A stretch of DNA of 64,000 nucleotides, taken from the IMG/VR virus record IMGVR_UViG_3300037418_001222; one strand, 5' to 3'. Shown piece by piece: positions 4,051 through 20,869 of the stretch. This stretch comes from a virus (taxonomy: Duplodnaviria; Heunggongvirae; Uroviricota; Caudoviricetes). Both the position numbers and the translations under genes were made by a program. Numbering within the stretch: position 1 is the first letter of the stretch; the number at the start of each line of letters is the position of its first letter. The notes beneath the pieces are model-generated. The model was not told the origin of the DNA. It saw only the letters and a list, made by a program, of their open reading frames with translations, and searched no databases.

Positions 4051-4527
4051 TTAGCCGAGGCGAACCAAGTGATCCGCCGCGTGCATAGCCGCAAAAGCGT
4101 CAGGCTTAATTTTCGGATCAAAACCATTGCCTCTAACGTAGCCAATAGCCTCTTTAACCGCAGCCTGAGACTTGTACTTTGGATTAGGATTGATGTCTAG
4201 GTGAACCTCCATATGGCGATCACCAATAACATCTACCATTTCCAAAGCCGCATTCACAGCAAACATAACTTCATTCAAAAGTCTCTGCTTAGGAGACTTA
4301 TCTGGCGCCCAATCCTGTAGGACTTGAGCATCAGAGAATAGCTTGCAACCCTTAGAACTGTCCTTGTGGACAATAATAACGGTCATGTATCTAGCATGCC
4401 AGATACCGTTTCTCTTGAACCTCTTAGAGTCGCAGCCGATATAAACTGAAGACTCTGGACTTGAGGTTCTGATGGCTTCCTTTGCCTTCTCAATCCAAGT
4501 CTTCTTATCATTCACGATAATCTCCAT
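4051..4527 (-). CDS. RNase H-like protein (YkuK/DUF458 family)
   Basis: VYIGCDS...Y.TVI.VH...G...RL..EV...EVHLDIN...G...KIKPDAFAA...ADH pattern; start trimmed because the track start overlaps tRNA-Trp. Confidence 0.8.
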   Translation of the reverse strand: MEIIVNDKKTWIEKAKEAIRTSSPESSVYIGCDSKRFKRNGIWHARYMTVIIVHKDSSKGCKLFSDAQVLQDWAPDKSPKQRLLNEVMFAVNAALEMVDVIGDRHMEVHLDINPNPKYKSQAAVKEAIGYVRGNGFDPKIKPDAFAAMHAADHLVRLG

Positions 4528-4537
4528 AGTTCTAAAA

Positions 4538-4612
4538 TGGCACCGGTGCAAGGATTCGAACCCTGACAAGGAGTTTTGGAGGCTCCCGTGCTACCTTTAA
4601 CACCACACCGAT
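4538..4612 (-). tRNA. trnW: tRNA-Trp(CCA)
   Basis: Loop CTCCAAA, acceptor ATCGGTG/CACCGGT, G73, CCA. Confidence 0.9.
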
Positions 4613-4613
4613 G

Positions 4614-4692
4614 TGGTGGAGTACTAGGGAATCGAACCCTACTGATATCCTCCTTGCAAGGGAAGCGTCCACCCCATGCAGACCCGTACCCC
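4614..4692 (-). tRNA. trnA: tRNA-Ala(TGC)
   Basis: G3:U70 pair, CTTCC-CTTGCAA-GGAGG, CCA. Confidence 0.92.
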
Positions 4693-4700
4693 AATAATAA

Positions 4701-4783
4701 TGGCGACCGTGATGGGACTCGAACCCACCTTGCATTTCTGCTCCGCTAGACAGGCGGATGTTCTCCCCGAGAACTACACGGCC
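4701..4783 (-). tRNA. trnD: tRNA-Asp(GTC) with an extended variable arm
   Basis: TCCGC-CTGTCTA-GCGGA, variable hairpin GCA-GAAA-TGC, G73, CCA. Confidence 0.87.
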
Positions 4784-4784
4784 A

Positions 4785-4859
4785 TGGAGCGGGTGAAGGG
4801 AATCGAACCCTCGTATCTACCTTGGCAAGGTAGTGTAATATCCTCTATACGACACCAGC
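4785..4859 (-). tRNA. trnG: tRNA-Gly(GCC)
   Basis: CTACC-TTGCCAA-GGTAG, U73, CCA. Confidence 0.9.
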
Positions 4860-4869
4860 ACTAAAGAGA

Positions 4870-4945
4870 TGGAGGCCCAGATCGGACTCGAACCGACATT
4901 GAAACTGCTTTGCAGGCAGGCGCGTAACCATTCCGCCACCGGGCC
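4870..4945 (-). tRNA. trnC: tRNA-Cys(GCA)
   Basis: Loop CTGCAAA, U73, CCA. Confidence 0.92.
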
Positions 4946-7729: not shown

Positions 7730-8671
7730 TTACGCAATCTCACAATCCACCATAATCTCAACCATGCACGCAGCTAGGTTAATCTCAGGGTCAGCACAAA
7801 AGGCGGCCTGATACTGATACTTTCCAAGGATCAAAACGAGCTGAGGAATAGATCCTGACTTGAAGTATTGGACCGCATTATCATAGAAGTTTCTATAAAT
7901 CGTATTCTGATCTGCATCAGAGTTCTGACCAATCCACTTACGAACATTCGTGAAGTCCTTCTCTCTCATGAATGAGATGAGGTCCTTAAGTGAGACCTCT
8001 TGAAGGTTTGATAGAATACCAGAATCGATCTTTCCATTAGAAGCATACCTCTGTAGTTCATTCAGAACTCTACGCCAATCTGGAAAATGCTTGGTGATTA
8101 CTTCTGCAACCACCTTCTCGTCATATTGGATATTCTCTGCTTCGAGGATAATCTTAACTCGCTCGAAGAACTGACCAGCTAACTTTGCCATATCCTTCTT
8201 AGCGATCTTGAAGTCAATTACCGAACACCTCGAGTGAAGTGGAGCAATCAGTCGATTCTTGAAGTTACAAGTAAGAATGAACCCACAGTTCCTCGAGAAC
8301 TCTTCCATGAAGTTACGAAGAGCTGGCTGAGTGGAATTTGCGTTTAGATAGTCGGCTTCATCGAGAATAACATACTTTCTTCCTCCCATCAGAGATACTG
8401 ATGAGGCAAAGTTTAGGATCTCATTTCGAAGAGTATCAATGTTGCCATTAAGTGAACCATTGATCACGATGTAATCGCAGTCTAGTTCCTCGAGCATAGC
8501 CCTGGCTATGGTTGTCTTTCCTACCCCAGCCGATCCAGCTAGGATAAGATTAGGAATGTTCTTTTGATCTACGAATTTTTGAAATGTATTTTTCAAATCA
8601 ACCGGAAGAATAGTCTCTTCTACGGTCTTTGGTCGATAACGCTCGACCCAGAGAGGATTGTCCTCTTGCAT
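7730..8671 (-). CDS. gp44: Clamp loader large subunit (AAA+)
   Basis: LWVERYRP, GSAGVGKTT, ILDEAD, SRC motifs; start moved to the ATG at 8671 (GGAG SD). Confidence 0.97.
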   Translation of the reverse strand: MQEDNPLWVERYRPKTVEETILPVDLKNTFQKFVDQKNIPNLILAGSAGVGKTTIARAMLEELDCDYIVINGSLNGNIDTLRNEILNFASSVSLMGGRKYVILDEADYLNANSTQPALRNFMEEFSRNCGFILTCNFKNRLIAPLHSRCSVIDFKIAKKDMAKLAGQFFERVKIILEAENIQYDEKVVAEVITKHFPDWRRVLNELQRYASNGKIDSGILSNLQEVSLKDLISFMREKDFTNVRKWIGQNSDADQNTIYRNFYDNAVQYFKSGSIPQLVLILGKYQYQAAFCADPEINLAACMVEIMVDCEIA

Positions 8672-8686
8672 CAATTTCTCCATAAT

Positions 8687-8735
8687 AAAATAAGAAAGGG
8701 AGTACAATAGGCTCTGCAGTCACTACTGTACTCCC
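8687..8735 (-). terminator. Intrinsic terminator/attenuator between gp45 and gp44
   Basis: 13-bp stem GGGAGTACAGTAG/CTATTGTACTCCC followed by TTTCTTATTTT. Confidence 0.7.
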
Positions 8736-8767
8736 ACTGTTCTGACTGGGACGTCTGAACAGCTAGC

Positions 8768-8875
8768 TCAGGCTGTCGCCTTGAGCTTAGTCCAACGTTT
8801 GATGTTTCTTTTCTTAGTACATCTATTTCCTGCTCCAGTTTTCCTGAAGCGAATACATCTAAAACATTTACACAT
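8768..8875 (-). CDS. Basic Cys-rich 35-aa peptide (MCKCFRCIRFRKTGAGNRCTKKRNIKRWTKLKATA)
   Basis: Read manually; ATG overlaps the gp45 stop (TAATG). Confidence 0.4.
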   Translation of the reverse strand: MCKCFRCIRFRKTGAGNRCTKKRNIKRWTKLKATA

Positions 8876-9528
8876 TAGTTGAATTTTGAGTTGGCTTCAA
8901 CTGCCACGTAATACTCAAGATCTTTAGACTTGAATCGAGAGATGACTGGAGTAATATCTACAGTATAGGTGTCTGGAAGCAGACGGATATTTTCTGCCTT
9001 AAAGTAGACCGTGAAGTTCTTATCGGTATCTCCAACTTCCACAGCATATGAATCTGAAGTTGGATCTTTAGAATTTACCGTCTGAACTGATACTACAGAT
9101 CCATCTCCAACAATAGCAATCTCTGGTTGGCGAAGAACGCCAAGTGCCTTAGTCACTCCACTCAAAACTTCAGAAGTGAGTTCGAAAGTTACGTCAGATG
9201 GTGGGAAATTGATCGAATCACTCTTTGGAACTACGATTGAATTCACATCGGCAAATACATAGTTTACCTTCTTCCTACCAGAAGAGATCTGAAGTGACTT
9301 ATCTCCGATAGAGAGTTCTGGATCATCAAATAGACTCAAGACGGATAGTAACTTGCTCAAGTCATAGATAGCGAATTGAGATGGAAACTCTTGTTCAAGA
9401 GTTGCTTTAGCGAAAATCGTCTTAGTTGGAGTAATCGTGGTGATTACATTACCAGGCTTAAATAGAATGCTCGGATTAATCGAGGAAAAATTCTTCAGAA
9501 CCTGAAGAGTACGCTGGTCAAGTTTCAT
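8875..9528 (-). CDS. gp45: Sliding clamp
   Basis: MKL...TLQVLKNFSSINPSI...FAIYDLSKLLSVLSLF...YYVAVE. Confidence 0.96.
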   Translation of the reverse strand: MKLDQRTLQVLKNFSSINPSILFKPGNVITTITPTKTIFAKATLEQEFPSQFAIYDLSKLLSVLSLFDDPELSIGDKSLQISSGRKKVNYVFADVNSIVVPKSDSINFPPSDVTFELTSEVLSGVTKALGVLRQPEIAIVGDGSVVSVQTVNSKDPTSDSYAVEVGDTDKNFTVYFKAENIRLLPDTYTVDITPVISRFKSKDLEYYVAVEANSKFN

Positions 9529-9530
9529 AA

Positions 9531-9827
9531 TTAAATTTCAACCCTATCTTTATCTTCTGATGGTCGTACACGGTACTTAACGTCCTTGTAGAGTCCACCA
9601 AAGTGTTGTTCAAAGCTGACCTTAATGAATGGTCTATCTGTTTCATGAGGATTAGGGTTGGCAACTGTAACGTAACCCTTCTTACCCTTCTTCCACGCCT
9701 CAAGCTTATTGAGGTATTTGTCGAGTTCAGAACGCCCATCTCTAACTAGACGAACAGTAGTTCTGGAAATCGATTGGCGCTGCCCCTTGGAAGTCTTCTT
9801 GGAACGGCACCTAACTTTCTTACCCAT
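9531..9827 (-). CDS. Conserved T4-like hypothetical protein, basic
   Basis: TSKGQR...NKLEAWKKGK...VANPNP..TDRPFIKV pattern; start moved to the ATG at 9827 (GGAG SD). Confidence 0.75.
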   Translation of the reverse strand: MGKKVRCRSKKTSKGQRQSISRTTVRLVRDGRSELDKYLNKLEAWKKGKKGYVTVANPNPHETDRPFIKVSFEQHFGGLYKDVKYRVRPSEDKDRVEI

Positions 9828-9860
9828 TGTATTATTATCACTCCACTTAGTTAATACATT

Positions 9861-9889
9861 ATTATATTTCAAAGTTCTACAAATGTCAA
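9861..9889 (-). promoter_or_regulatory. Perfect-consensus sigma70 promoter for the gp45-44-62-regA operon
   Basis: TTGACA-17 nt-TATAAT. Confidence 0.85.
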
Positions 9890-10765
9890 TTATTTCTTGG
9901 TCTTCTTCTTAAGCTTTTGAAGATCTTGAGCAGAAGCGGTAGCCGGAGCTCCAATAGCGCCAAGAGCTCTTAAGCTACCTCCAAAGACATACGAACCAAC
10001 ATGCGCCATCTGCATCCATGGACAAATATAAACGGTTCCACCCATCTTTCTTACATATTGACAAAACATATAGTCTTCAGAAAGATATCGCTTCGTATCT
10101 GGATCAATCACGGTGTCGAAGAAAGCATGAATCTCTCGTGATCCGTCAAAGTGTTCAGTTCTGACGTGATCCGGTTTATATGAAAACTCAGGATAGTGTT
10201 CTCTAAACCTTTCTAGAACATCTCTCTTGAGCATCATAAAGCCCGTTCCAATTTCCGCAACTTCAGTAGGTTCATCGATCTTAATCTCATTCTTTCCTGA
10301 GACTGGATTTAGAACATAGTCACCCACAAAATTCTCTAGAACGCGAGGATCCTGATCGGCCACTCCCTTATCTACAGCTAGCTTGATTTTCTCCCATGAG
10401 ATACACTTCTTAGGATATGGACCACCAATGACGTCTATGTCTGGTCTATTAATCATGATAGCGAGCAGTGCTAAGACATCGTTTGGAGCGAATCCAATAT
10501 CGGAATCGATAAACATCAAGTGAGTACAATCAGAGCGTAGGAACTCATCGCAACAATAGTTCCTAGCTCTGGTTATTAGTGACTCATTGAACATGAAGTA
10601 GAATTGAAGTTGAACTCCATTAGCTAGAGCAGTATTCGTCAAGTCTGCTATAGACTTGCAGAACATTCCAGCGCACTGCCCTCCATACATCGGAGTAGCA
10701 ATCATTATCTTACAACTTCGTAGCTTTTCAGCGTCTACTGAAATTTGAACTCCCGGCTGACTCAT
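9890..10765 (-). CDS. Putative GT-A fold glycosyltransferase
   Basis: IATPMYGG...NESLITRARN...HLMFIDSDIGF...IGTGFMMLKR...LSEDYMFC. Confidence 0.75.
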   Translation of the reverse strand: MSQPGVQISVDAEKLRSCKIMIATPMYGGQCAGMFCKSIADLTNTALANGVQLQFYFMFNESLITRARNYCCDEFLRSDCTHLMFIDSDIGFAPNDVLALLAIMINRPDIDVIGGPYPKKCISWEKIKLAVDKGVADQDPRVLENFVGDYVLNPVSGKNEIKIDEPTEVAEIGTGFMMLKRDVLERFREHYPEFSYKPDHVRTEHFDGSREIHAFFDTVIDPDTKRYLSEDYMFCQYVRKMGGTVYICPWMQMAHVGSYVFGGSLRALGAIGAPATASAQDLQKLKKKTKK

Positions 10766-11376
10766 TACTTCTTCTTTGTAGCTCTCTTTTGATCTTCAGA
10801 TGTGAAGTTAGTTCTTGCTCCAGTAGAAGCATATGAACAAGTCATCGTAGACAAGTTATTAAGTTCAGCCTGATAGTTTCCAAGACCAATATTCAATGAC
10901 TTTGTAGCTGCAAGACCAATTCCACGAGCTTGATCATGAACATTATCAAAGTTAGCTCCTAGGAAGACTACCTCCCAGTTACGATCTTCTGCTCTAGCGA
11001 GTTTCTCTTGGATAACTTGCTTGTTATACTTCCTTGAAGAATTCTCTTCACCATCAGTCATGATCACAATATAAGCACGATCTGGACTCTCGGAAAATGC
11101 TAGGTCGAGTAGCTGAGCAAGAGAATCAAGAAGAGGAGTTCCACCGCCAGGTGATACTTCTTCATTAGTTACCTTAGAAAATGATTCCGCGGGTTCATTC
11201 CTTAGAACCTTATAGTCACTTTCTGTATTCCATCCAAAAGCAGAACCACTAAATGCTGCAAGATATACAGCAGTTTCTGGTGGTAAGTTCTGAACGTATC
11301 CATTAATGGCGCCTAGTGTATCTGACCACTGGGTAGCCATTGAACCTGATTTGTCTAAAAGAATATAGACCTTCAT
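10765..11376 (-). CDS. vWA domain protein
   Basis: ILLDKSGSM, GGTPLLD, IVIMTDGEENSS. Confidence 0.85.
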   Translation of the reverse strand: MKVYILLDKSGSMATQWSDTLGAINGYVQNLPPETAVYLAAFSGSAFGWNTESDYKVLRNEPAESFSKVTNEEVSPGGGTPLLDSLAQLLDLAFSESPDRAYIVIMTDGEENSSRKYNKQVIQEKLARAEDRNWEVVFLGANFDNVHDQARGIGLAATKSLNIGLGNYQAELNNLSTMTCSYASTGARTNFTSEDQKRATKKK

Positions 11377-11378
11377 TA

Positions 11379-11732
11379 TTATTCCTCTTCTGAGTTGAAA
11401 TGATCATGGACGTATAACATCATGATGGCATAGTGACAGACTTTAAGAATGTCTGCTCTGTTCTTACCACCCTTCTTACCATATCGCTGAGCATACTTGA
11501 TGATATTCCCGATGGTGAAACCCTCACCATGTCCGGCGTCCATGATGAATTCTGTAGATTGGATTTTGGAGAGGGAATAGTGTTGATTGTACGTAGATGA
11601 AATGTACGTTAGAAGTTCCTGTAAATATAGATCTTCTTTAAATTTGTATTGTACTGGAATCTGTACAGTATTATCAAGAACACCATTAGAAGTAACCGTG
11701 TTCTCTAAAAGAGATTCTGAAGTATTGTCCAT
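11379..11732 (-). CDS. DUF3310-like protein (T4 61.1 / nucleotide-kinase-associated family)
   Basis: HY...GEGFTIGNIIKYAQRYGKKGG.NRADILK..HYA. Confidence 0.7.
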   Translation of the reverse strand: MDNTSESLLENTVTSNGVLDNTVQIPVQYKFKEDLYLQELLTYISSTYNQHYSLSKIQSTEFIMDAGHGEGFTIGNIIKYAQRYGKKGGKNRADILKVCHYAIMMLYVHDHFNSEEE

Positions 11733-11750
11733 AATAACTTTCTATTTATC

Positions 11751-12974
11751 TTACGCGAAGAAGTCCACTATTGTTTTAGAAGACTTCTCCTCCCAAATTT
11801 CATGTGTCTGGTGAGCATTCACTTGGTAGGTGTAGTTAGAATCAAGATAAGGTCTATTTCCGAGTAGGACTTCATTCACCTCTACAGCCATGTCCTTAGC
11901 TGTCTTCACTGGAACATTTTGACAGATATGATTAGCCGACTTCTTTGGATTTAGAAGTTCGAAATCGAGAGGCATGCCCATGATGGAGAGAGCTTCTCTG
12001 TAGTTGATGTACCTGTCGTGGTCCGGATGGGTGAGCATTGATGGGTAATGACCGACAAATGCACCGATAAAGTCCTTGGGGACGATGGTACCTCTGCGCA
12101 TGACGTTACCACCAGCAGCAAGCTTAGAATACTTATACTTACACTTTTCGACTTCTTTATCATATCCATGTTTCTCTAACCATGCGCCGACCTGCTTATA
12201 ATCATGTCCCTGTTGTTCGATGAATGAGAATGTATCATTAGATCTAACTTTCAGAAACTCCATCTTCTCATGAGAGAACTGACGATGAGTTAAACCACCA
12301 AACATCTCTTCAAGAATATATCTGTAATATGGATCGTCTTTTGATGGAGTCTTTGGATTGATAGGCTCCTGCATTGTATTGGACTTAGCATCACGAATTA
12401 CATCCTCAATCTTCTTCCAAGGACGATTATAATACCCAAGGAGTGGAGTCTTATTTCCCTTCCAGAAGAAATAGAATGTGCGTTCTCTTGTTTGAGCTGT
12501 TCCATGTAGAAGAGATCTAGTTCTATATACGGTCATAGAATAACCGTTATCGAGTCCAATCTTTCTTACTTGATTCCTGATATCTGCTCCAATTTTTCCA
12601 GCAAACCCTGGTGCATTTTCCCCCCAGAAAACATCTGGTTTGAGTTCTCCTAGGACATATTGGGCAGACCTAACCATCCACTGATTGTTTTGGTTGTGAG
12701 TGCCGAACCCGTGGCTAAGCTGACTAAGACCAGCGCAAGGACAGGTGGTGTTGACCACAGTAACTTTCCTAGCAGGACGCTCACCACGGTCAATATAGTG
12801 ATAAGGAAGATCAACACCACGCTGCTCACGATAATAATTGATAAGATGCGATTCATTGGCTTGAAAACCTTCATACGTCATTAAATATTCAGGTGGAGAT
12901 CCATTGGCCTCCTCCTGAGCTAAAGTCATTCCTCCGATTAATGGAATAATTGATGCGTGTGTAATATCATTCAT
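11751..12974 (-). CDS. DNA cytosine-C5 methyltransferase homologue with degenerate SAM-binding motifs
   Basis: Catalytic TCPCAGLS (IV), GENAP (VI), QTRER (VIII) and YREALSIMGMP (IX) are present; motif I reads SIIPLIGG and motif X reads ICQNV. Confidence 0.8.
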   Translation of the reverse strand: MNDITHASIIPLIGGMTLAQEEANGSPPEYLMTYEGFQANESHLINYYREQRGVDLPYHYIDRGERPARKVTVVNTTCPCAGLSQLSHGFGTHNQNNQWMVRSAQYVLGELKPDVFWGENAPGFAGKIGADIRNQVRKIGLDNGYSMTVYRTRSLLHGTAQTRERTFYFFWKGNKTPLLGYYNRPWKKIEDVIRDAKSNTMQEPINPKTPSKDDPYYRYILEEMFGGLTHRQFSHEKMEFLKVRSNDTFSFIEQQGHDYKQVGAWLEKHGYDKEVEKCKYKYSKLAAGGNVMRRGTIVPKDFIGAFVGHYPSMLTHPDHDRYINYREALSIMGMPLDFELLNPKKSANHICQNVPVKTAKDMAVEVNEVLLGNRPYLDSNYTYQVNAHQTHEIWEEKSSKTIVDFFA

Positions 12975-13060
12975 TAGTCTACGTCAAACCACACAATAGC
13001 TTTATCAAATAAAGCCCAGAATAGTAAAGTGAATGCAACAATTACTAAGAATAAAAGCAT
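12974..13060 (-). CDS. 28-aa hydrophobic peptide (MLLFLVIVAFTLLFWALFDKAIVWFDVD)
   Basis: Read manually; TAATG-coupled at both ends. Confidence 0.55.
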   Translation of the reverse strand: MLLFLVIVAFTLLFWALFDKAIVWFDVD

Positions 13061-14214
13061 TAGAAGAAACTCTCCAAGGAGGCTGAAGGTGGAAGTACTG
13101 GATGGGCTGGAAGACCCTGCTTCTTGGGATCTTTGATTTGAGTAGTATTATACTCTACACCATTCCAGTGTGGATAGGACATTCGTGATAAGTGAACTGA
13201 ATTCTTATACTCCATTGCATGGAGATCTAGTTCACCCTTCTTATTTAGTAAGTATTCTGTCCACCTAATAAATCTAACTGGAATATGAGGATTAAGTTTA
13301 CATAAACCTTCGATTCGATTATTGAATACTTTTCGAGCATTCATCCTCTCCTCCCAAGATCCCCAGAACGGTTTCTTCATAAACATGCCAGACTGTGGTA
13401 ACTTACGAGCTTCTTCCTCACATGGAAGTAATTCATAGATTCCAACGCTCCTAAGATTTACAAATTTACCAGAAGAAAACAGTTCACACGCTGCAGTATA
13501 ATAATCGAGGGATAAATCAGAAGGAGTTGGCCAAAGATCTGTTCCTTCTTTAGTCTCTGTTCGACAGAAGTGATGTCTTAGATCGATGTTTCCAAAATAT
13601 AATTCTACATTCTCCACCTGATCATGAGAATCATATGGATCCATGATAAATGATTCTAGTCCTGATTTAAGAGCTCCACGAAGCGTCTTATAAGGAACTG
13701 AATTAACAGTCCAACCAGGCCGGTACATACAGATAGAATGGCTATCGCCAATAACAATATTGGGAGTGACATTTGGATACCTCAATACTTCTGAAGACTC
13801 CATCCTCTTAAGATTATCCCAGTCAATCTCCTCGAATTCTGGTTTTGGAGTTCTTCCGTTTCCTTTATCTTGAGCGAGTTTCTCTTGTAGTTGTTGGTGA
13901 TAGTTAGGAAATGGTATTCCCAACGAAATAACTTCACCTTTAAATAGAGTTAAGTTTCTAAAGTTCCAAGCATATGGAAATCCTTCGGTTCCTCCATATA
14001 GATTAAGTCCACCAGACCAGTCATTACCATGATATACATAGACCTTATCGAACTCGTTAAAGTCATAGCATACGTGACCTCCGAAATTTACTACAACCTC
14101 ATCTCCGGTCGCCTGTTTAATCATATCAGCATAGATGACTCCCTGAGCTGCTCTATGTGATGCCATGAAGATGGCGATAGGAATAAACGGTGCTACTACT
14201 AAAGATCTTGCCAA
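13060..14214 (-). CDS. Protein with an SGNH/GDSL-like C-terminal domain
   Basis: VIGDSHS (block I), FGNID (block III), SVHL (block V); ends SASLESFF. Confidence 0.6.
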   Translation of the reverse strand: MARSLVVAPFIPIAIFMASHRAAQGVIYADMIKQATGDEVVVNFGGHVCYDFNEFDKVYVYHGNDWSGGLNLYGGTEGFPYAWNFRNLTLFKGEVISLGIPFPNYHQQLQEKLAQDKGNGRTPKPEFEEIDWDNLKRMESSEVLRYPNVTPNIVIGDSHSICMYRPGWTVNSVPYKTLRGALKSGLESFIMDPYDSHDQVENVELYFGNIDLRHHFCRTETKEGTDLWPTPSDLSLDYYTAACELFSSGKFVNLRSVGIYELLPCEEEARKLPQSGMFMKKPFWGSWEERMNARKVFNNRIEGLCKLNPHIPVRFIRWTEYLLNKKGELDLHAMEYKNSVHLSRMSYPHWNGVEYNTTQIKDPKKQGLPAHPVLPPSASLESFF

Positions 14215-14534
14215 GAGTCACCAATCCTTCTAGTCTCAAATGGAACTTTATTGACCTGATATACGTGATGAGCGGCTATCATTCCTCCTGACCACCCAAG
14301 GTCAGTATAGAATACAGCTTTATCTGCTACTCTAGACCAAGCGAGCCCCGCATCAATTCCTATTCTTCTCTCCTTAGGAATATCATCTCTAAGAATTCCT
14401 GGTTGAGTATATAGCAAATGAGATGCGATTGGAGCCTCTCCTCGAAGAATAGAGTCTCTTACACATCCTCTAGCATATTTTGTATTACGCTCAATGTTCC
14501 CTTTGTAAGGACTCTCAATTATCACGAGTTTCAT
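14199..14534 (-). CDS. DUF4406/DUF7768-like protein (nucleoside deoxyribosyltransferase-like fold)
   Basis: IESPY.G..ERN..YAR...RGEAPIASHLLYTQ...G.SGGM; start moved to the ATG at 14534 (ATGA overlap). Confidence 0.65.
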   Translation of the reverse strand: MKLVIIESPYKGNIERNTKYARGCVRDSILRGEAPIASHLLYTQPGILRDDIPKERRIGIDAGLAWSRVADKAVFYTDLGWSGGMIAAHHVYQVNKVPFETRRIGDSWQDL

Positions 14535-14782
14535 TCTGATTCTACTGGATATTCCGTAATAATAGCCACTTTGGCTCCACACTTAATGACTGGGTTTCCA
14601 TCTCTTGTCGAGATGATTCGAGCTACCGTATTACCATCTTTATCTTTGATAGCTATGGCGTGAGCTCTCTTGGTGACTTTACCAGAGGGAGTATTGCTTA
14701 CCCTAATTGCCGGATCGGGGTTCTGCCAATTCTTCTTGTTGTTTGAAGCGATTACATTCTTACATACTGAAATATAGTTCAA
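14531..14782 (-). CDS. Conserved phage hypothetical protein, 83 aa
   Basis: N..K...P.I.V...CGAKVAIIT pattern. Confidence 0.7.
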   Translation of the reverse strand: MNYISVCKNVIASNNKKNWQNPDPAIRVSNTPSGKVTKRAHAIAIKDKDGNTVARIISTRDGNPVIKCGAKVAIITEYPVESE

Positions 14783-14958
14783 TCTATAAACTCCTTTAGA
14801 AGTTCTATAACTACTGGAATTTGATACTCCCAGAGTTTATAAGAATCGCCGAGCCTATTTCGAGTTTCTTCGGTAACTGCCCAACCGGTTCCATCTGGAT
14901 CGATGCCTTTTACTTTACACACTCTTCGCGCATAATGTTCAATGTCACTATTAGCCAA
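14779..14958 (-). CDS. Hypothetical protein, about 59 aa
   Basis: Track ORF trimmed to the TTG at 14958 (GGAG SD 7 nt upstream), removing most of the overlap with the upstream gene. Confidence 0.55.
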   Translation of the reverse strand: MANSDIEHYARRVCKVKGIDPDGTGWAVTEETRNRLGDSYKLWEYQIPVVIELLKEFID

Positions 14959-16204
14959 AGAAATTCTCCAATGATGCTGATTGATTTCCAACCTCTTTAG
15001 AGATTGGAGCGGAAGCTCTAGCGTGTGCTGCTTGTGGATTACTTCGAAGTCTACAAAAAACGTTAAATTGGCAACTGCCAATCTCGATTCCAAAGGTAGT
15101 AAATCTACCTAGTTCTGTAGCTTCTGAGTGATACTTATAATCCAAGTCACTAGAAATGTCAAGGAATTTATGCTGCATATCTCTGATCTGAAGGATCAGA
15201 TGCATAGTGGTCTTTGGGTTGATCGCTACAGTAGGAAAGAGATTTTTAAGAGTAGCGGATGCGCCTGGACCAGCCACCACAAAATTAGCGTCTTCATCAA
15301 GTTCTCCATGTTCAATACCTAACTTATCGAATTCATATTTATGTTCTACTTCGATAATAGAAGAGCTACCAACACCCGGCATTCGAGACAGATTAGAAGA
15401 GAAGTGGTACCCGTAGTATGGTCCTATTCCTCTCAATGCAGTCAGATACTCATATGATCCCTGCATTGTTGGCTTTGTCTTATAGAATCTGCTCCATTCA
15501 GGAGTAAGACTCTTCAACCAAGCGATCATATCAGAAGTTCTCATCTTTCTCTGAGTATGATCTGAATTTGGCTCAATTATGACTCTATTATTGAAAGTAA
15601 GACCTCTACGATCTATGATAGTTCCATTAGCTCTAGCATAATTTCTAGATGCTATTTGTAGCGAAGTTCTAAGTTCAGTAGTTCCCCAGAGCTGTTCCTT
15701 ATGATGAGAGGCGAGCTCTATATTCCTCATGAGGGTGTATTCGTATTCCTCATCCTCTTGAATTCGTTTGAAATCAATGTACGGTAATTCTGTCCGAACC
15801 ACGTATGGTAGATCAGATACGTGTCCTGTGATGATGGAAAGGGTTCTAGAAGGACCGTAGAACTTAACAATGGCTGAGTTAACGAGTTTGTTTTCGAACG
15901 AGACTTCAGGTCGGAAATAGAGATTTGAATTAAGCCAGATGATCTCGTCGTGGAATGAACGATTGGGGTGGAAATATGGTATTGGTCTCCCGTCAATGAC
16001 AAATCCAGTACCGAAGTGTTCTTGATGTTGGTATCCCGACTTAACGTAATCTTCAAAGGTTTCATGAGTCTTCCCAATTCGTACACACCATTCTCTCTTA
16101 TTGAACTCTCTAATGAATGATCCGAATTGTTTTCTTACATCGTGATCACATATCTTCCAAAAATCAGAACCATCTAGAGATAAAGCTTCTTGTGTAGTCA
16201 ACAT
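14951..16204 (-). CDS. Divergent aGPT-Pplase clade-1 / 5-hmdU DNA kinase-like helical protein
   Basis: LTALRGIGPYYGYHFSSNL, FVVAGPGA and IEIGSCQF resemble the family's GIG.F..Y...Dl, GPGA and E..lCE motifs; ends SASLENFFG. Confidence 0.55.
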   Translation of the reverse strand: MLTTQEALSLDGSDFWKICDHDVRKQFGSFIREFNKREWCVRIGKTHETFEDYVKSGYQHQEHFGTGFVIDGRPIPYFHPNRSFHDEIIWLNSNLYFRPEVSFENKLVNSAIVKFYGPSRTLSIITGHVSDLPYVVRTELPYIDFKRIQEDEEYEYTLMRNIELASHHKEQLWGTTELRTSLQIASRNYARANGTIIDRRGLTFNNRVIIEPNSDHTQRKMRTSDMIAWLKSLTPEWSRFYKTKPTMQGSYEYLTALRGIGPYYGYHFSSNLSRMPGVGSSSIIEVEHKYEFDKLGIEHGELDEDANFVVAGPGASATLKNLFPTVAINPKTTMHLILQIRDMQHKFLDISSDLDYKYHSEATELGRFTTFGIEIGSCQFNVFCRLRSNPQAAHARASAPISKEVGNQSASLENFFG

Positions 16205-16379
16205 ATGTTCTTTTCATTCCTAATTCTTCTTTCAATCTACAAATTTCAAGAAACTGACCTTGAGTGCATCTTCCTTCTCTTTTAATTTTTGCTTCTAATT
16301 TTCTTAGAGCTTTTAACTTATTTCTATTCTGAGGTAGATTCCAAGGTTTTTGGTCCATGCCATACATTCTCTTTATCAA
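16164..16379 (-). CDS. Possible small basic hypothetical protein
   Basis: ORF track; covers the 120-nt gap but overlaps both neighbours. Confidence 0.35.
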   Translation of the reverse strand: MIKRMYGMDQKPWNLPQNRNKLKALRKLEAKIKREGRCTQGQFLEICRLKEELGMKRTYVDYTRSFISRWF

Positions 16380-16728
16380 CTAGGTCATGAACAATTCTCA
16401 CGACTTTAACTCTAGGGCACTCTTCTTCAATAATTAGAGCCTGAACTTCATCATCCTCAAAGTGGATTTTAATATCGTATCCAACATCTAAAAGATGATT
16501 TAGAGTTCTAGCCTTATGCTTTCCAGACTTTTCTCTAGTCTTGCTCTCGAATGCTACTGGAGAATAGAAGACCTTGTTATGAATATCCTGATGATCTAAC
16601 CAGTAGTCAGTGTATTCTTTCTCGTCAAGAGATCTACCGGTGATAATTACATCTTTAGGTCCTGGACGAAGACCGTTGTAATTATCACCAAGATAGATTA
16701 CACCATCGATATCGTATGAGTTAATCAC
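16324..16728 (-). CDS. HAD-superfamily phosphatase (capless)
   Basis: DIDGV (I), ITGRS (II), K (III), FEDD (IV). Confidence 0.85.
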   Translation of the reverse strand: MINSYDIDGVIYLGDNYNGLRPGPKDVIITGRSLDEKEYTDYWLDHQDIHNKVFYSPVAFESKTREKSGKHKARTLNHLLDVGYDIKIHFEDDEVQALIIEEECPRVKVVRIVHDLVDKENVWHGPKTLESTSE

Positions 16729-17119
16729 GATCTCTTACTTCAGTTGTAGGAGTATATGGAAATGTTACGTCTACTCGGCTCTCATAGTTTGTGACACAAC
16801 ATCCATCTGGATCTCTCCAAACAATTCCTTCAATATCATATGCTCGACCATTTTCTTTGAACACTCGAGGAGATCTTTTATTCTGATATAGATTCTCTCC
16901 GACCTCATTCCATTCAGAATCTTCACCAGTTAACGGCGTGAGAGGTTCAAATCTCATTAGCTTCTCAACGATCTGAGTTGTAAGTCCCGCAGAAAATCCA
17001 GAGTGACCCTGATTAGCAAACACTCTAACTAGTTCTAGAGCAGCGTCAGCGATCATGTTATTATATTCATCACCTCGAAAAGACTCGAGTTCTTTTTCAG
17101 CATATTCAACTAAGCTCAT
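16721..17119 (-). CDS. Conserved phage hypothetical protein
   Basis: AEKEL...F..QGHSGFSA...EPLTPLTGEDSEWNEV pattern. Confidence 0.75.
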   Translation of the reverse strand: MSLVEYAEKELESFRGDEYNNMIADAALELVRVFANQGHSGFSAGLTTQIVEKLMRFEPLTPLTGEDSEWNEVGENLYQNKRSPRVFKENGRAYDIEGIVWRDPDGCCVTNYESRVDVTFPYTPTTEVRDRD

Positions 17120-17163
17120 ATTTTCTTCTTTCTACAGTTATTTCCATGCCATCTCCCATATGC

Positions 17164-18354
17164 TTAGGCAACTTGTGATGTAAGTGCTTCTCTGACATTC
17201 TTCACTGGGAGGTTATTAGCAATAAGAGTTGGGGTTAACCTACGTTCGGCTAGAGCCTTGCACTCCTCGTATGCATCTTGGATCATCATTTGTTCGATTG
17301 GTGTCTTCTGAGTTGCAGCGGATGGGCCACGAAGAGAACCGACAAGTCCAAGTTCTCTAGCGACTTGTAAAAATCTTAGAGCGTCGATAACCACCCCGGC
17401 AGAGTTTGGCGAATCTTGGACAGACAGTCGAGCGTCGAATATGACTGGAGCTCCTCCGAAGCCTTCAGCTTCGATTCTGAAATGTGCGACCTTATTATCT
17501 CCATGGTACGCAATATAGCTTGATGGTCCTGCATAGATTCCATTCTTAGGGACTGGGATTCCTCGAATATCATTCTGGCTCCTGATTACGTTTTCTTTAG
17601 ATATCTTCTTTGAAGCAAGACGGCTCTGATCCATCATGTTGAGGAAGTCAGTGTTTCCACCATGGTTAGTCTGTTCATGGAACTTAACCTGCATTCCACG
17701 ATTGAAGAAGAGTTCCTGAAGCGCCTGACTTAGAACAGAAGCTCCGAGCTGAGAGCGCATATCATCACCAATCGCTGGAATTCCTGCTTCTTTAATTCGA
17801 GCTTCCCACTTAGGATCAGATACGATGAAGACTGGAATACAGTTTACGAATGGAACCTTAGCCTCAAGACAACCCTCAACATAGAACTCAGTAGCTTCCT
17901 GAGATCCGACTGGAAGATAATTTAGAAGGACATCGACCTTGTGGTCTTTTAGATCCTTAACTAGTTGTTCATGAGTGAGTTGCTCTGAAACTTCATCAAT
18001 ACGGAAAGCTTCATCCTCATCATAGTCAATCATGTGAGGGGCAACTCCGTCAAGAACGGCTCCCATCTTTACATATGTACTTCCTGTCACATCAAGAAGA
18101 TCTTCTTGATCGACATTGAAATTCATAGCACAGTTTGGTTTTTGGCTAATAGCAGCAGATAGATGTCTACCGACTTTACGTGGGTCCACGTCATAGGCAA
18201 GCACGAACTCGATGTTCTCTGCCTTATATCCACCAATTTCTGGAAATGCGAGACCGTCTGTCTGACCGGTCTTAGAGTAGAGAGCGACTCCCTCTACGAG
18301 AGATTTAAAACAATTGCCCACACCAACGGCGGCAACACGAATTTTATTTTGCAT
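17164..18354 (-). CDS. ino1: myo-inositol-1-phosphate synthase
   Basis: VGVGNCFKSLVEG NAD-binding start, LNYLPVGS, FVNCIPVFI, GDDMRSQLGA, NHGGNTDFLNM, GDNK, LSVQDSPNSAGVVIDA. Confidence 0.93.
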   Translation of the reverse strand: MQNKIRVAAVGVGNCFKSLVEGVALYSKTGQTDGLAFPEIGGYKAENIEFVLAYDVDPRKVGRHLSAAISQKPNCAMNFNVDQEDLLDVTGSTYVKMGAVLDGVAPHMIDYDEDEAFRIDEVSEQLTHEQLVKDLKDHKVDVLLNYLPVGSQEATEFYVEGCLEAKVPFVNCIPVFIVSDPKWEARIKEAGIPAIGDDMRSQLGASVLSQALQELFFNRGMQVKFHEQTNHGGNTDFLNMMDQSRLASKKISKENVIRSQNDIRGIPVPKNGIYAGPSSYIAYHGDNKVAHFRIEAEGFGGAPVIFDARLSVQDSPNSAGVVIDALRFLQVARELGLVGSLRGPSAATQKTPIEQMMIQDAYEECKALAERRLTPTLIANNLPVKNVREALTSQVA

Positions 18355-18446
18355 TAATCTGACCTTTCATATCAGTTGTTAACCCAGAGCGGCTCTCGCC
18401 TTTTGGCCTCTTATGAGGGTAGCTGGGAGATACGACCAACGTATCT
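18355..18446 (-). promoter_or_regulatory. Structured 5' leader of ino1
   Basis: AGATACG/CGTATCT hairpin, then a CCCAG/CTGGG stem enclosing short hairpins. Confidence 0.4.
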
Positions 18447-18449
18447 ATT

Positions 18450-18743
18450 TTATTTATAGTGATTGTAATTTTTGGCGATATCGCTTTGAAGAATGGCTAA
18501 TACACGACTCCTTCTTGCTTCTCTAGAATTTGTTGCTGGCCATTTATTCCAAGCATATTGATTAGCATAAAATGCGTCATTTACTAGAGTCCAAAGAGGA
18601 TCGTTTCTATCTTCTCTTTCAAACGTTAGAAATTGAGCAATAAATTGCTCTTGTAATTCTAAAGGGTCTAAAATAATTTCGATAATTTTATCGTACTCTC
18701 TTTGAGTCAATCCCTTTTTCTGTTCTTCTAATTTTTCATTCAT
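18450..18743 (-). CDS. Hypothetical protein, 97 aa
   Basis: ORF track; coupled to its neighbour. Confidence 0.65.
   Translation of the reverse strand: MNEKLEEQKKGLTQREYDKIIEIILDPLELQEQFIAQFLTFEREDRNDPLWTLVNDAFYANQYAWNKWPATNSREARRSRVLAILQSDIAKNYNHYK
18451..18458 (-). promoter_or_regulatory. T4-type late promoter upstream of ino1
   Basis: Exact TATAAATA. Confidence 0.6.
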
Positions 18744-19023
18744 TCAAATATGTCCTGCATTCATCTAAACACTTATTGACAAATTTATCATTTAGATCGA
18801 TTAACCAGACTGCTACTTCAAATGTTCCATCTGACTTCTGAATCCAGAATAAATCTTGCTGTGGGCAGTAAAAGAGTCTATTCATCCTCAATAGATATTC
18901 AGTATTTACTCGACACCCGGCTCCATTTTTAGTTTTGGAATATAGTGAGTGCTTCTGACAAAATCTAATAACTTTGTCGGTAAAACTCTTATTTTCACCC
19001 GGATTTGGTGTTAAGATACTCAC
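18736..19023 (-). CDS. Hypothetical protein, 95 aa, C-terminal helix duplicated from the UDG-like gene
   Basis: ORF track; NDKFVNKCLDECRTYLN versus NDDRFINKCLEECREYLN. Confidence 0.55.
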   Translation of the reverse strand: MSILTPNPGENKSFTDKVIRFCQKHSLYSKTKNGAGCRVNTEYLLRMNRLFYCPQQDLFWIQKSDGTFEVAVWLIDLNDKFVNKCLDECRTYLNE

Positions 19024-19432
19024 GACATTCTTCTAAACACTTATTGATGAACCTATCATCATTAATTTGTCTATTAAGGGGAGATGGATGGGGTAGCTTG
19101 AAGTGGTCTATGCCGGCCTTCATTAGAGCCTCAGCGGCAAAATTCCCCAAGGCAACTACCCTAGGAAACTTATATAGGGCTTTCCTCAAATTGTCAAGGT
19201 TTACTTGTGAGACTTTGCATTTTCCTGGGTGTGGATAAGCATTCATGAATGTAAAAGTATCAAGACCTAACTTTTCTACCCAATCATTCAAGCGAGGGAA
19301 GGTGTTCTTTCCCTTTGCAGCTTTGGCTGATGGATTCTGACCTACAAAAGCTACGATATCTGTAGAAGCTTCATAAACCAATTCCACGCTCTTGAGACCC
19401 TCGAGGGTTGATCCAATTTCAATATCTGACAT
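18995..19432 (-). CDS. Uracil-DNA glycosylase superfamily protein
   Basis: FVGQNP (motif A), VVALG..A and LPHPSPLN (motif B). Confidence 0.75.
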   Translation of the reverse strand: MSDIEIGSTLEGLKSVELVYEASTDIVAFVGQNPSAKAAKGKNTFPRLNDWVEKLGLDTFTFMNAYPHPGKCKVSQVNLDNLRKALYKFPRVVALGNFAAEALMKAGIDHFKLPHPSPLNRQINDDRFINKCLEECREYLNTKSG

Positions 19433-19881
19433 TAGTCTATACCAATATCTACTTCTACGATTTCAATTCCGGCCTCAGTGAAATAAGCCTTAGTCTTATT
19501 CACCGATTCCAACCAACGATCATATAATCTTTCAGGAAGAACTGGAGCTACAACTCTATTAATTCCAGCTTGGATCATGTGAACGGCGCACCTGTCACAA
19601 GATAAGAATGGCCAGGTGTAGAGAGTGCATCCTTTAACAGACCTCTGAGCATTCAATACAGCATTCATCTCACAATGAACGATCATTGAGTACTTAGTTG
19701 GTCTATCATTTAGTCTTTCTGGAGTATCTTTGAGACGATGTGGAAAACCATTATATCCTACTGATACGATATGTCTATCTTCGTCTACTATCACCGCTCC
19801 AGTTTGAGTAGACGGATCTTTACTCCAAGTCGAGATTAGTTTTGTTAATTCCAGGAACCGTAAGTCCCAATTCTTTTTCAT
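19432..19881 (-). CDS. cd: dCMP deaminase
   Basis: WSKDPSTQTGAVI, GYNGFP, HCEMNA, SCDRC; start moved to the ATG at 19881. Confidence 0.9.
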   Translation of the reverse strand: MKKNWDLRFLELTKLISTWSKDPSTQTGAVIVDEDRHIVSVGYNGFPHRLKDTPERLNDRPTKYSMIVHCEMNAVLNAQRSVKGCTLYTWPFLSCDRCAVHMIQAGINRVVAPVLPERLYDRWLESVNKTKAYFTEAGIEIVEVDIGID

Positions 19882-20110
19882 CAATTGCATCCATCGTGTT
19901 GTCAAAGATCTTGTGGAAGGCACTCATATCGTGACTACCATCATCCAAGTCTACAAAAACTTGAAGGAATAAGACCACAAGAGCATAGGTCCGTCTCTTG
20001 GGATAGAACGGTGTTGGTCCCTCATATACAACCTTTGGAATCCACTTCCAGTTGAATGGATTCAGGTTGAATCTAAGAGATATATCAGAGTTCTTTAGGT
20101 ATTTCATCAT
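19820..20110 (-). CDS. Hypothetical protein, 96 aa
   Basis: ORF track. Confidence 0.6.
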   Translation of the reverse strand: MMKYLKNSDISLRFNLNPFNWKWIPKVVYEGPTPFYPKRRTYALVVLFLQVFVDLDDGSHDMSAFHKIFDNTMDAIDEKELGLTVPGINKTNLDLE

Positions 20111-20216
20111 CTTTTGTTAATTCCAAAGTAGGAACTTCGTGCATTCTTGCTATGATGATAACTCCAGCATAGACTAAAGCTACAAATCCTATTACGATAA
20201 ATGCTATCATTGTCAT
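20085..20216 (-). CDS. 43-aa single-TM membrane peptide (MTMIAFIVIGFVALVYAGVIIIARMHE...)
   Basis: Read manually; TAATG-coupled to the gp42 stop. Confidence 0.55.
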   Translation of the reverse strand: MTMIAFIVIGFVALVYAGVIIIARMHEVPTLELTKDDEIPKEL

Positions 20217-20869
20217 TAGTTAATCAATCCAAAATGTCTCTCGTAGACGTGAAGGCTTCCGACTTGCCAAATAATATCTCCAGTAGGAACATCTAGTTCT
20301 TTACTAACTTTATTCAGAACATGCTTTGCCCATGACCAATCATTTTTATATCCAAAAACTACGTCATTAGATCTCATGGTTACTACCACGTGAACCTTAC
20401 CATCACGAATTAAATATTGATGAGCATTAGTGCAGATAAAATCACTCATTCCAGCTCGATTATACTCGAACTGAATACTTGGTCTAGTGTAAATCATGAT
20501 TGCTCTTCGAGAATACGGATCTCTTTTAAGAGCCTCTACACAACTCATGAACTGATCACAATTCTCACCTGAGTAGATCAGATATCCGTAATTCGAATTA
20601 ATCTCACCACTTGGAGTAGCAACTTGCTTCCAGATATGAGGAACTGGAGGTGGAATATCATTCACATTGAGAGACTGAGACTCATACCATTGAATCTCTC
20701 TTCTAACATAATCCTCATTAACTGTTCCGAAGATCGCCGGTTCATCTGCTAGAAATGATGCTCCCACCATCTCTACCATCTTACATCCGGTCTTATCGAT
20801 TACGAAGTTCTGTTTCTCGAGTTCCGTCTTGAAGTACGTCCTGATGTCTTGGATTGTTGTTCTCTGCAT
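20216..20869 (-). CDS. gp42: dCMP hydroxymethylase (thymidylate synthase family)
   Basis: Matches T4 gp42 as I recall it: DKTG.K..E..GASF.ADEP.IFG, GEINSNYG, SRR.IMIYTRPS, GMSDF.CTN (catalytic Cys), MRSNDVVFG..ND (cytosine-specifying Asp). Confidence 0.92.
   Translation of the reverse strand: MQRTTIQDIRTYFKTELEKQNFVIDKTGCKMVEMVGASFLADEPAIFGTVNEDYVRREIQWYESQSLNVNDIPPPVPHIWKQVATPSGEINSNYGYLIYSGENCDQFMSCVEALKRDPYSRRAIMIYTRPSIQFEYNRAGMSDFICTNAHQYLIRDGKVHVVVTMRSNDVVFGYKNDWSWAKHVLNKVSKELDVPTGDIIWQVGSLHVYERHFGLIN

Follow-up and report, generated by a model that had tools for sequence, protein, structure and literature searches.

A phage-only branch of the DNA cytosine-C5 methyltransferase fold with a redesigned cofactor pocket and a probable role other than methylation

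Results

A cytosine-C5 methyltransferase homologue in the modification island of a T4-like phage

The stretch of DNA analysed here, hereafter the window, comprises 64,000 nucleotides of IMG/VR virus record IMGVR_UViG_3300037418_001222 and is that of a T4-like phage, encoding regA, gp62, gp44, gp45, gp46/47, UvsW, UvsY and gp23 together with 18 tRNA genes. A co-oriented island between gp45 and gp46 holds the gene that concerns us, a homologue of the DNA cytosine-C5 methyltransferases (C5-MTases) that we refer to as C5MTL, whose open reading frame (ORF) lies exactly where an earlier note on this DNA had placed it (Table 1). We find that C5MTL represents a large, phage-only and uncharacterised branch of the C5-MTase fold, and that this branch is tied, in its genomes, to the hydroxymethylation of dCMP before replication and to DNA glycosyltransferases.

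Besides C5MTL, the island includes genes for a GT-A-like glycosyltransferase (GT) homologue of phrog_1574, a VWA protein, DUF3310 and DUF7768 proteins, a phrog_13881 protein, a protein resembling 5-hydroxymethyldeoxyuridine (5-hmdU) DNA kinases and aGPT-Pplases (HMUDK-like), a Tad3 homologue, an inositol-3-phosphate synthase, a UDG-like protein, a dCMP deaminase, an orthologue of T4 gp42, Nmad1 and MazG. A megablast comparison of positions 9000-17000 with cultured phages gave no match.

Table 1. C5MTL, its motifs and pocket positions, and selected genes of the island (coordinates are those of the window; pocket positions are mapped by topology).
Feature	Position	Strand	Remark
C5MTL (C5-cytosine-methyltransferase-fold protein)	11751..12974	(-)	ORF, 407 aa plus stop; PF00145 E 1.8e-13
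Variant motif I SIIPLIGG, residues 8-15	12930..12953	(-)	Loop after strand beta1
Motif IV TTCPCAGLS, residues 76-84, catalytic Cys80	12723..12749	(-)	Aligns to PCQxFS of M.HhaI, M.HaeIII
Motif VI GENAP, residues 118-122, Glu119	12609..12623	(-)	Aligned to ENV
Motif VIII QTRER, residues 161-165, Arg163/Arg165, preceded by His157-Gly158	12480..12494	(-)	Family conservation
Motif IX RYINYREALSIMGMPLDF, residues 321-338			Intact
Motif X variant QNVPV, residues 352-356	11907..11921	(-)	Aligns to GNAVP / GNSV of M.HaeIII, M.HhaI
C-terminal tail KTIVDFFA	11754..11777	(-)	Resembles clamp-binding peptide
M.HhaI F18 equivalent			Family Ile/Val10; changed
M.HhaI G20 equivalent			Family Leu12; changed
M.HhaI E40 (ribose-binding; E47 in CmoX) equivalent			Family Ser/Thr33, 126/132; changed, by topology
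M.HhaI W41 (stacks on adenine) equivalent			Family Tyr/Phe/Trp34, 124/132; kept in kind
M.HhaI D60 (adenine-binding) equivalent			Family Asp62 (95 Asp, 11 Glu; 106/132); kept
M.HhaI G303 equivalent			Family Gln352; changed
M.HhaI N304 equivalent			Family Asn353; kept
gp45 sliding clamp	8875..9528	(-)	phrog_223 E 3.5e-69; PF09116
GT-A-fold glycosyltransferase-like protein (phrog_1574)	9890..10765	(-)	phrog_1574 E 7e-64; Atlas neighbours GT2/Anp1-like
phrog_13881 protein, SGNH/GDSL-fold C-terminal half, SLESFF tail (variable cassette)	13060..14214	(-)	AlphaFold2 pLDDT 84
5-hmdU-DNA-kinase/aGPT-Pplase-like (HMUDK-like) helical-domain protein, SLENFFG tail (variable cassette)	14951..16204	(-)	PF18723 E 4.9e-5, below family cut-off; phrog_17781 E 6e-164
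myo-Inositol-3-phosphate synthase (variable cassette)	17164..18354	(-)	PF01658 E 1.4e-24; TIGR03450 E 4e-85, below equivalog cut-off
T4 gp42-type dCMP hydroxymethylase	20216..20869	(-)	277 bits, E 7e-82 to T4 1b49; MRSND

The family has the predicted fold and the catalytic motifs of C5 methyltransferases

C5MTL matches the Pfam DNA_methylase family, and its AlphaFold2 model, built with 17 homologues as input, has a mean predicted local distance difference test (pLDDT) score of 86. The model displays the two domains of C5-MTases, a Rossmann-type catalytic domain and a target-recognition domain. Using Foldseek and VIA-align, we identified M.HhaI, the CP-933R prophage methylase, CmoX, M.HaeIII and DNMT1 as structural neighbours, with Foldseek E-values against C5-MTase structures of ~1e-10. 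Residues 2-373 of the model superimpose on residues 10-325 of M.HhaI with a Z score of 23.4 and a root-mean-square deviation (rmsd) of 3.2 Å over 286 residues.

A word-indexed search returned 2258 homologues of C5MTL at E<=1e-3, and an exhaustive search returned 672 clusters at 50% identity, 224 of these at E<1e-30; in sequence terms the C5MTL clade appears to make up a small part of the C5-MTase superfamily that stands apart from the rest. Each of two scans matched the family to over 500 viral contigs, and three cultured phages, S-TIM5, Pseudoalteromonas XG4 and Bacillus phage G, carry members. Our literature search found no paper on the family; a large glycosyltransferase survey mentions methyltransferases, clamps and epimerases near ThyS-linked GTs, without analysing them. 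Long members of the family (557-1462 aa) contain no Pfam fusion domain apart from a single zf-CXXC, which is fused to the C terminus of a member on a 2.4-kb TARA contig (P0188, locus L221; E 6.6e-7), and an Atlas search with the 1462-aa form gave no match.

Conservation was counted in 132 diverse full-length representatives of the family, down to ~30% identity. All the motifs quoted in the earlier note are present in the C5MTL translation, and of the catalytic ones that it had described as intact (PC, ENx, QxRxR and motif IX), the first three proved near-invariant across the 132 members and motif IX is intact in C5MTL. Motif IV has the consensus [CP]-P-C-A-G-L-S, with Cys80 in 131/132 and A81-G82-L83-S84 near-invariant; motif VI reads E-N-A-P (E119 132/132, N120 130/132, A121 126/132); and motif VIII reads H-G-x-P-Q-x-R-x-R, with R163 and R165 in every member and Q161 and H157 in 129 each. 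The Pro-Cys nucleophile, the Glu-Asn of motif VI and the Gln-x-Arg-x-Arg are thus those of a C5-MTase, with two substitutions beside them, PCQ to PCA (the Gln after Pro-Cys replaced by Ala) and ENV to ENA (the Val of motif VI replaced by Ala). An invariant Glu119 together with Arg163/Arg165 fits a cytosine-type base, and an invariant Cys fits attack on C6. C5MTL retains what is needed to flip such a base and attack its C6 through Cys80, namely Glu119, Arg163/Arg165, motif IX and Asn353.

The canonical motif I, F-x-G-x-G-G, is replaced in C5MTL by I-P-L-I-G-G, and the family consensus is P-L-[IV]-G-G (P11 and L12 130/132, G14 131/132, G15 129/132). Motif X has the consensus Q-N-V-P (Q352 130/132, N353 127/132), and the family possesses a specific block, N-[DE]-W-M-Y. 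The deviations in motifs I and X to which the earlier note had drawn attention are real and near-invariant in the same 132 members, a pattern that reads as a family signature and not as noise.

The cofactor pocket appears remodelled on its methionine and ribose sides

Comparison of the cofactor-binding half with canonical enzymes was possible through structure only. A family profile run against PDB structures, and an hhalign comparison with E. coli Dcm, aligned from motif IV onward only and not over motifs I-III; a profile of the first 80 residues of C5MTL found nothing in the PDB at E<=10; and the Pfam alignments of several members begin after motifs I-II. Because motifs I-III are not alignable to canonical enzymes, the residue equivalences in Table 1 rest on the predicted secondary structure of the model (beta1 6-9, helix 15-24, beta2 31-33, helix 38-52, beta3 58-60, beta4 73-76) and on where the VIA superposition begins, with model residue 2 on M.HhaI residue 10, placing I10 on F18 and L12 on G20; the mapping is topological, with no residue-level superposition. 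Roles of the residues that contact S-adenosylmethionine (SAM) in M.HhaI and CmoX were taken from PMC12783734. Judged from the model, this half of C5MTL seems to have kept its fold while its sequence became unrecognisable.

Under this topological mapping, the changed positions cluster at the methionine/sulfonium side of the pocket and at the ribose, and the adenine side persists. Position 35 is acidic in 31/132 members only, and an invariant Asn40-Asp/Glu41 pair follows one turn after. Taken together, the substitutions amount to a conserved, family-invariant redesign of the cofactor pocket. The earlier note had claimed a rewired SAM pocket: structure prediction and comparison with M.HhaI uphold a conserved remodelling, but the adenine-side equivalents are kept and SAM may still bind.

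C5MTL genes accompany a hydroxymethylcytosine pathway and glycosyltransferases

The gp42 orthologue of the window contains MRSNDVVFGYKND and has Asp (the Asp179 equivalent) at the position of E. coli ThyA N177, with D169 kept; a MazG-type pyrophosphatase and the dCMP deaminase lie beside it. According to PMC13326640, D169N marks the 5-hydroxycytosine (5hoC) type, and a gp42-like thymidylate synthase (TS) homologue with D169 and with Asp at N177 is a maker of 5-hydroxymethyl-dCMP (hm-dCMP). By these criteria the window orthologue should make hm-dCMP and not 5-hydroxy-dCMP, and a 5hoC synthase pathway was ruled out on account of the retained D169. The suggestion, made earlier from the letters alone, that this is likely a genome containing 5-hydroxymethylcytosine (hmC) is thus supported by the orthologue and its Asp, together with the pyrophosphatase and the deaminase. 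The GT-A-fold phrog_1574 protein is likely the DNA glycosyltransferase of this phage group; its homologues end in lysine-rich tails that are possibly DNA-binding.

We fetched 163 loci around C5MTL family members. In T4-like relatives (82 loci) the gene order is near-constant, gp42 - dCMP deaminase - variable genes - C5MTL - (DUF3310) - GT-A - gp45, with gp42 present at 65/82 loci, a GT at 71/82 and gp45 at 63/82, figures limited mainly by contig ends; the phrog_1574 GT gene lies 1-2 kb downstream of C5MTL. Among distant lineages (81 loci) the commonest neighbours are an NAD-dependent epimerase/dehydratase (54/81) and a GT-B protein faintly resembling T4 beta-glucosyltransferase (36/81), and other frequent ones are a sugar nucleotidyltransferase (NTP-transferase), a DegT aminotransferase, an acetyltransferase, a GT2 and a KDO8P-synthase-like enzyme.

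A TS homologue lies within the fetched stretch at 92/163 loci, and in 92/92 it has Asp at the N177 position and keeps D169. In a jumbo-phage group with no TS homologue within 10 kb, two larger contigs carry one 56-66 kb away. An Asp-type homologue is present in every one of the larger or complete genomes that we searched, namely S-TIM5, Pseudoalteromonas XG4, Bacillus phage G, G003, G004, G006 and G007. The complete-type records, consisting of the three cultured phages and two near-complete IMG/VR genomes, have a dCMP-specific one in 5/5, whereas canonical ThyA copies in the same larger or complete genomes have Asn at the N177 position. A Dcm-based scan for canonical phage C5-MTases to serve as controls picked up nothing but enterobacterial dcm copies at the edges of prophages; with no matched canonical-methylase control, the strength of the association between C5MTL and TS homologues rests on its consistency over unrelated lineages.

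Several individual loci illustrate the range of these settings. Annotations of S-TIM5-like phages include a DNA alpha-glucosyltransferase (PMC10087341). In Bacillus phage G (JN638751.1 213405-226349, locus L171; also L175), gp301 is a divergent family member with CPCSGLS, ENAP and QGVP; it is encoded near genes annotated as 'alpha glucosyl transferase' and glucose-1-phosphate thymidylyltransferase. A TS homologue that has Asp at the dCMP-specificity position lies 13 kb away, and the phage may carry modified cytosine. In a set of IMG/VR jumbo-phage contigs (L089-L121), C5MTL closes a roughly ten-gene sugar pathway comprising a KDO8P-synthase-like enzyme, two epimerases, a hexapeptide acetyltransferase, a DegT aminotransferase, a GT2, a HAD phosphatase, an NTP-transferase and a T4-beta-GT-like GT-B protein; two conserved proteins (~341 and ~259 aa) that belong to no Pfam or PHROG family come after C5MTL.

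The inositol cassette is patchily distributed in the family

The earlier note had offered the addition of inositol to hmC as an example of what C5MTL might do. In the window, the variable genes are the inositol-phosphate synthase gene, a 134-aa ORF and the genes for the HMUDK-like and phrog_13881 proteins, which are gained and lost jointly. This cassette occurs near 27/163 family loci only. We followed it on a maximum-likelihood tree built from the 78 C5MTL sequences whose loci extend far enough upstream to judge; there its distribution takes six gains or losses, of which well-supported branches force at least four, and inositol-cassette and sugar-cassette lineages are interleaved. Where the inositol cassette is missing, C5MTL adjoins epimerase, UDP-galactopyranose mutase, aminotransferase and T4-beta-GT-like genes, and the pocket residues of C5MTL do not differ between the two groups. 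The patchy cassette and the unchanged pocket imply that the C5MTL step is independent of the attached group; the inositol example does not stand, and a role for C5MTL as an inositol-specific transferase was ruled out by the distribution of the cassette on the tree.

Should inositol be joined to the DNA of this phage, the HMUDK/aGPT-Pplase-like protein and the phrog_13881 protein are better candidates. In its predicted structure, the C-terminal half of the latter matches platelet-activating factor (PAF) acetylhydrolase and sialate O-acetylesterase at E ~1e-5, an esterase/acyltransferase fold; the protein has invariant GDSH and GNID (GNIDxRHH) blocks, and its N-terminal ~140 residues form an alpha/beta domain. 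In PHROG 17781 a phrog_13881-type protein is fused to an HMUDK-like protein.

A polymerase-type tail suggests tethering to the sliding clamp

The C terminus of T4 DNA polymerase is a clamp-binding peptide, and there are reports that T4 alpha-glucosyltransferase interacts with gp45, which offers a precedent for DNA-modifying enzymes held on the clamp. Homologues of C5MTL end in TLEAF[LFI] or SLESFF, those of phrog_13881 in SLE[DS]FF and those of the HMUDK-like protein in SLExFF, such that the three island proteins and their homologues share a terminal [ST]-L-E-x-F-[FLI]; the family B DNA polymerase of a related contig (L001:607-3147) ends in NTIEDFFT. We inspected the ends of gp42, GT, VWA, DUF3310 and inositol synthase (INO1) homologues and found no such tail in them. 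A complex prediction of gp45 with C5MTL residues 366-407 scored 0.19 (mark 0.32), which speaks neither way. The polymerase-type tail of C5MTL provides sequence-level support for tethering to gp45 and for action on newly replicated phage DNA; C5MTL probably rides the gp45 sliding clamp, and the shared tails suggest that C5MTL, phrog_13881 and the HMUDK-like protein make up a set of clamp-tethered DNA-modifying enzymes.

Other features of the window

Nucleoside 2-deoxyribosyltransferase-like proteins recur beside C5MTL, as DUF7768 in the window (14199-14582, minus strand) and as DUF4406 in a distant relative (L085:10591-10929), and may clear canonical deoxynucleotides from the pool. A homologue of Tad3, an inhibitor of type I Thoeris, is encoded inside the island (16721-17119, minus strand; E 5.7e-39). 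The block of 18 tRNA genes (432-4945, minus strand) includes two tRNA-Met, two tRNA-Gln and two tRNA-Ser. A promoter and terminator scan of 8500-23500 gave results at chance level; a perfect sigma-70 consensus (TTGACA, 17 nt, TATAAT) is found at 9861-9889 (minus strand), upstream of ORF 9531-9872.

Discussion

The account that we favour, while allowing it somewhat less than an even chance, is that C5MTL performs covalent Cys-C6 chemistry on hmC, or a derivative of it, in new phage DNA. C5MTL would follow the fork on the gp45 clamp and meet fresh phage DNA in which cytosine is already hmC; its Cys would add to C6 of hmC or the derivative, and the resulting enamine would, in a thymidylate-synthase-like manner, labilise or exchange the substituent at the exocyclic 5-methylene carbon. 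This step would be common to all these phages, whatever sugar or inositol cassette they possess. In phage DNA that contains hmC the C5 position is occupied, and methyl transfer is therefore impossible. C5-methyltransferases deprived of cofactor can remove a hydroxymethyl group. The SAM-free chemistry of C5-MTases on hmC in vitro, to which the earlier note had appealed, does exist: M.SssI couples thiols to hmC and M.HhaI shows atypical DNA hydroxymethylation, both in vitro and without cofactor (cited in PMC7176277).

C5MTL is probably, judging by its motifs and those of its relatives, neither an ordinary C5 methylase nor an inositol-specific transferase. The idea of a base-modifying transferase in place of a methylase was part of the earlier note, and the covalent residues, the remodelled cofactor half and the hmC genome speak for it; the inositol example is the part that did not hold, and SAM binding may be retained. 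More tentatively, and in our estimation rather unlikely to be right in full, C5MTL could be a natural 'hmC transferase', tethered to the clamp, that attacks C6 with its Cys, transfers no methyl group and instead replaces or rebuilds the 5-methylene substituent; the product would be an undescribed cytosine derivative in many T4-like, TIM5-like and jumbo phages of aquatic settings, and probably in Bacillus phage G.

A number of observations weigh against covalent chemistry on hmC. The adenine-pocket equivalents (Tyr/Phe/Trp34, Asp62, Trp99/Met100, Asn353) are conserved in the modelled pocket, and an adenosyl cofactor, possibly SAM, may still bind. T-even phages make glucosyl-hmC without an enzyme of the C5MTL type, and the sequences do not allow us to name a nucleophile or co-substrate common to all C5MTL lineages. 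Full replacement of cytosine by hmC is what the genes would predict, and unmodified cytosine could remain as a substrate. The synteny seen among close relatives could mostly be explained by shared ancestry and not by function. Finally, zf-CXXC is in eukaryotes a reader of unmodified (unmethylated) CpG, and its fusion to one family member would point to unmodified CpG.

The alternative that survives best, unlikely in our view but carrying appreciable weight, is that C5MTL is an ordinary SAM-dependent C5-MTase with an unusual motif I, which on the clamp behind the fork methylates either the cytosine that hmC had not replaced or particular sites, sparing no unmodified cytosine for host nucleases. 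The typical fold, the retention of all catalytic motifs and of Asn353, the conserved adenine-pocket equivalents (with residue roles as in PMC12783734) and the zf-CXXC fusion all agree with this, and a mopping-up role would explain both independence from the cassette and dependence on the hmC pathway. However, FxGxGG, the ribose-binding Glu and the Gly-Asn, all near-universal in active C5-MTases, are replaced by other, invariant residues, which looks like a changed ligand and not like drift; sequence comparison does not recognise the N-terminal cofactor half; and the target-recognition region is conserved over hundreds of phages, unlike that of restriction-modification-type methylases.

We consider it less probable still that C5MTL alkylates residual unmodified cytosine with a donor other than SAM, either as a DNA hydroxymethylase using methylene-tetrahydrofolate or formaldehyde or with a SAM analogue as in CmoX, and so completes the modification after replication. 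Such a role would suit Cys/Glu/Arg machinery for a free C5 combined with a remodelled pocket whose adenine-side residues are conserved, it accounts well for cassette independence and is compatible with the CXXC fusion. There are precedents in CmoX, a C5-MTase fold that uses another donor and has a changed residue at the N304 position (PMC12783734), and in the hydroxymethylation of DNA by M.HhaI in vitro (PMC7176277). On the other hand, some phages would be expected to rely on C5MTL alone, as in pairings of a methyltransferase with TET, yet every larger or complete genome searched has a dCMP-specific TS homologue; no donor-synthesis gene such as CmoA was found among the neighbours scanned; motif X has Asn in C5MTL and Arg in CmoX; and otherwise universal residues of the SAM loop are invariantly replaced.

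A Dnmt2-like methyltransferase of RNA (tRNA), or an enzyme acting on host DNA, with an incidental position in the hmC island, is hardly credible: the 18 phage tRNA genes (including Asp-GTC, Gly-GCC and Val) and the presence of Dnmt2 among the structural matches (Z 19-20) are all that speak for it, whereas Dnmt2 ranks below DNA methylases structurally, Glu119 and the Arg pair fit cytosine in DNA, the polymerase-type tail argues for replicating phage DNA, and co-occurrence with dCMP-specific TS homologues and DNA glycosyltransferases over unrelated lineages would be unexpected. Dnmt2 enzymes have canonical SAM motifs; motif I of C5MTL is not of that form.

Under any of these readings, C5MTL defines a well-delimited, widespread and unstudied branch of the C5-MTase fold, with a chemistry that, on the sequence evidence, is probably not methylation. 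If covalent activity on hmC is confirmed, it would be the first case in nature of a reaction that has so far been met only in vitro, as a side activity of DNA methylases, and it would imply an undescribed DNA base in very widespread marine and freshwater phages; enzymes that act on hmC are sought as tools for its labelling and sequencing. If C5MTL is a methylase after all, then the most conserved SAM-binding motif is replaceable, and the enzyme would explain how hmC phages handle leftover cytosine. Three cultured phages carry family members, which makes the question directly testable.

Comparison with known systems

Relative to canonical C5-MTases (EC 2.1.1.37; M.HhaI, M.HaeIII and the CP-933R enzyme, 3g7u), C5MTL has the same overall fold (Z ~23, rmsd 3.1-3.4 Å over 276-291 residues), Pro-Cys, the Glu-Asn of motif VI, Gln-x-Arg-x-Arg, motif IX and the Asn of motif X. 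It differs from them in its [IV]-P-L-[IV]-G-G motif I, Ser/Thr in place of the ribose Glu, PCA, ENA, Gln-Asn and the N-[DE]-W-M-Y block, and in that the family is confined to phages and is seen alongside a dCMP hydroxymethylase-type enzyme in every larger or complete genome checked.

CmoX (PDB 8yf3) is a phage DNA cytosine C5-carboxymethyltransferase whose donor is carboxy-SAM (Cx-SAM) (PMC12783734). Like C5MTL it is a phage C5-MTase fold with a changed pocket, and the two superimpose with a Z score of 23.1, equal to the M.HhaI match; in CmoX the pocket change accompanies a non-methyl transfer, the product of which is a handle for hypermodification. In CmoX the Phe, Glu and Asp that contact the cofactor adenosine are retained, and the enzyme has SPPC and an Arg at the N304 position, whereas the C5MTL family has CPC or PPC (here T-C-P-C), keeps Asn353 and has changed motif I and the ribose Glu. 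No CmoA emerged from a Pfam scan of ORFs in 696-32584 or from the neighbour clusters that recur around the family. Carboxymethylation of the CmoX type was ruled out for C5MTL, which has no Arg at the N304 position.

The chemistry proposed for C5MTL shares with the SAM-free side reactions of C5-MTases (PMC7176277) the same Cys-C6 activation on, or creating, a 5-hydroxymethyl group. Those are, however, in vitro reactions of ordinary methylases deprived of their cofactor. We know of no natural enzyme dedicated to such chemistry.

In phage clusters that combine a C5 methyltransferase with a 5mYOX/TET enzyme and glycosyltransferases (PMC8256090; bioRxiv 10.1101/2023.12.21.572611), as in the C5MTL loci, a gene of the C5-MTase family stands beside those for DNA glycosyltransferases and sugar nucleotides. 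There the methylase makes 5-methylcytosine for a TET-type dioxygenase, whereas in the C5MTL setting the hydroxymethyl group is pre-replicative and comes from a gp42-type enzyme. Neither the ORFs scanned around C5MTL nor its recurrent neighbours contained a match to Tet_JBP or 2-oxoglutarate (2OG) dioxygenases, and several conserved neighbours belong to no family. The setting resembles the T4 hmC pathway (gp42, gp56, gp1 and the alpha- and beta-glucosyltransferases) in having a gp42 orthologue, a dCMP deaminase, a MazG-type pyrophosphatase and a GT beside the gp45-gp44-gp62-regA block; it is unlike that of the T-even phages, whose hmC pathway operates without a C5-MTase-fold gene, in containing C5MTL.

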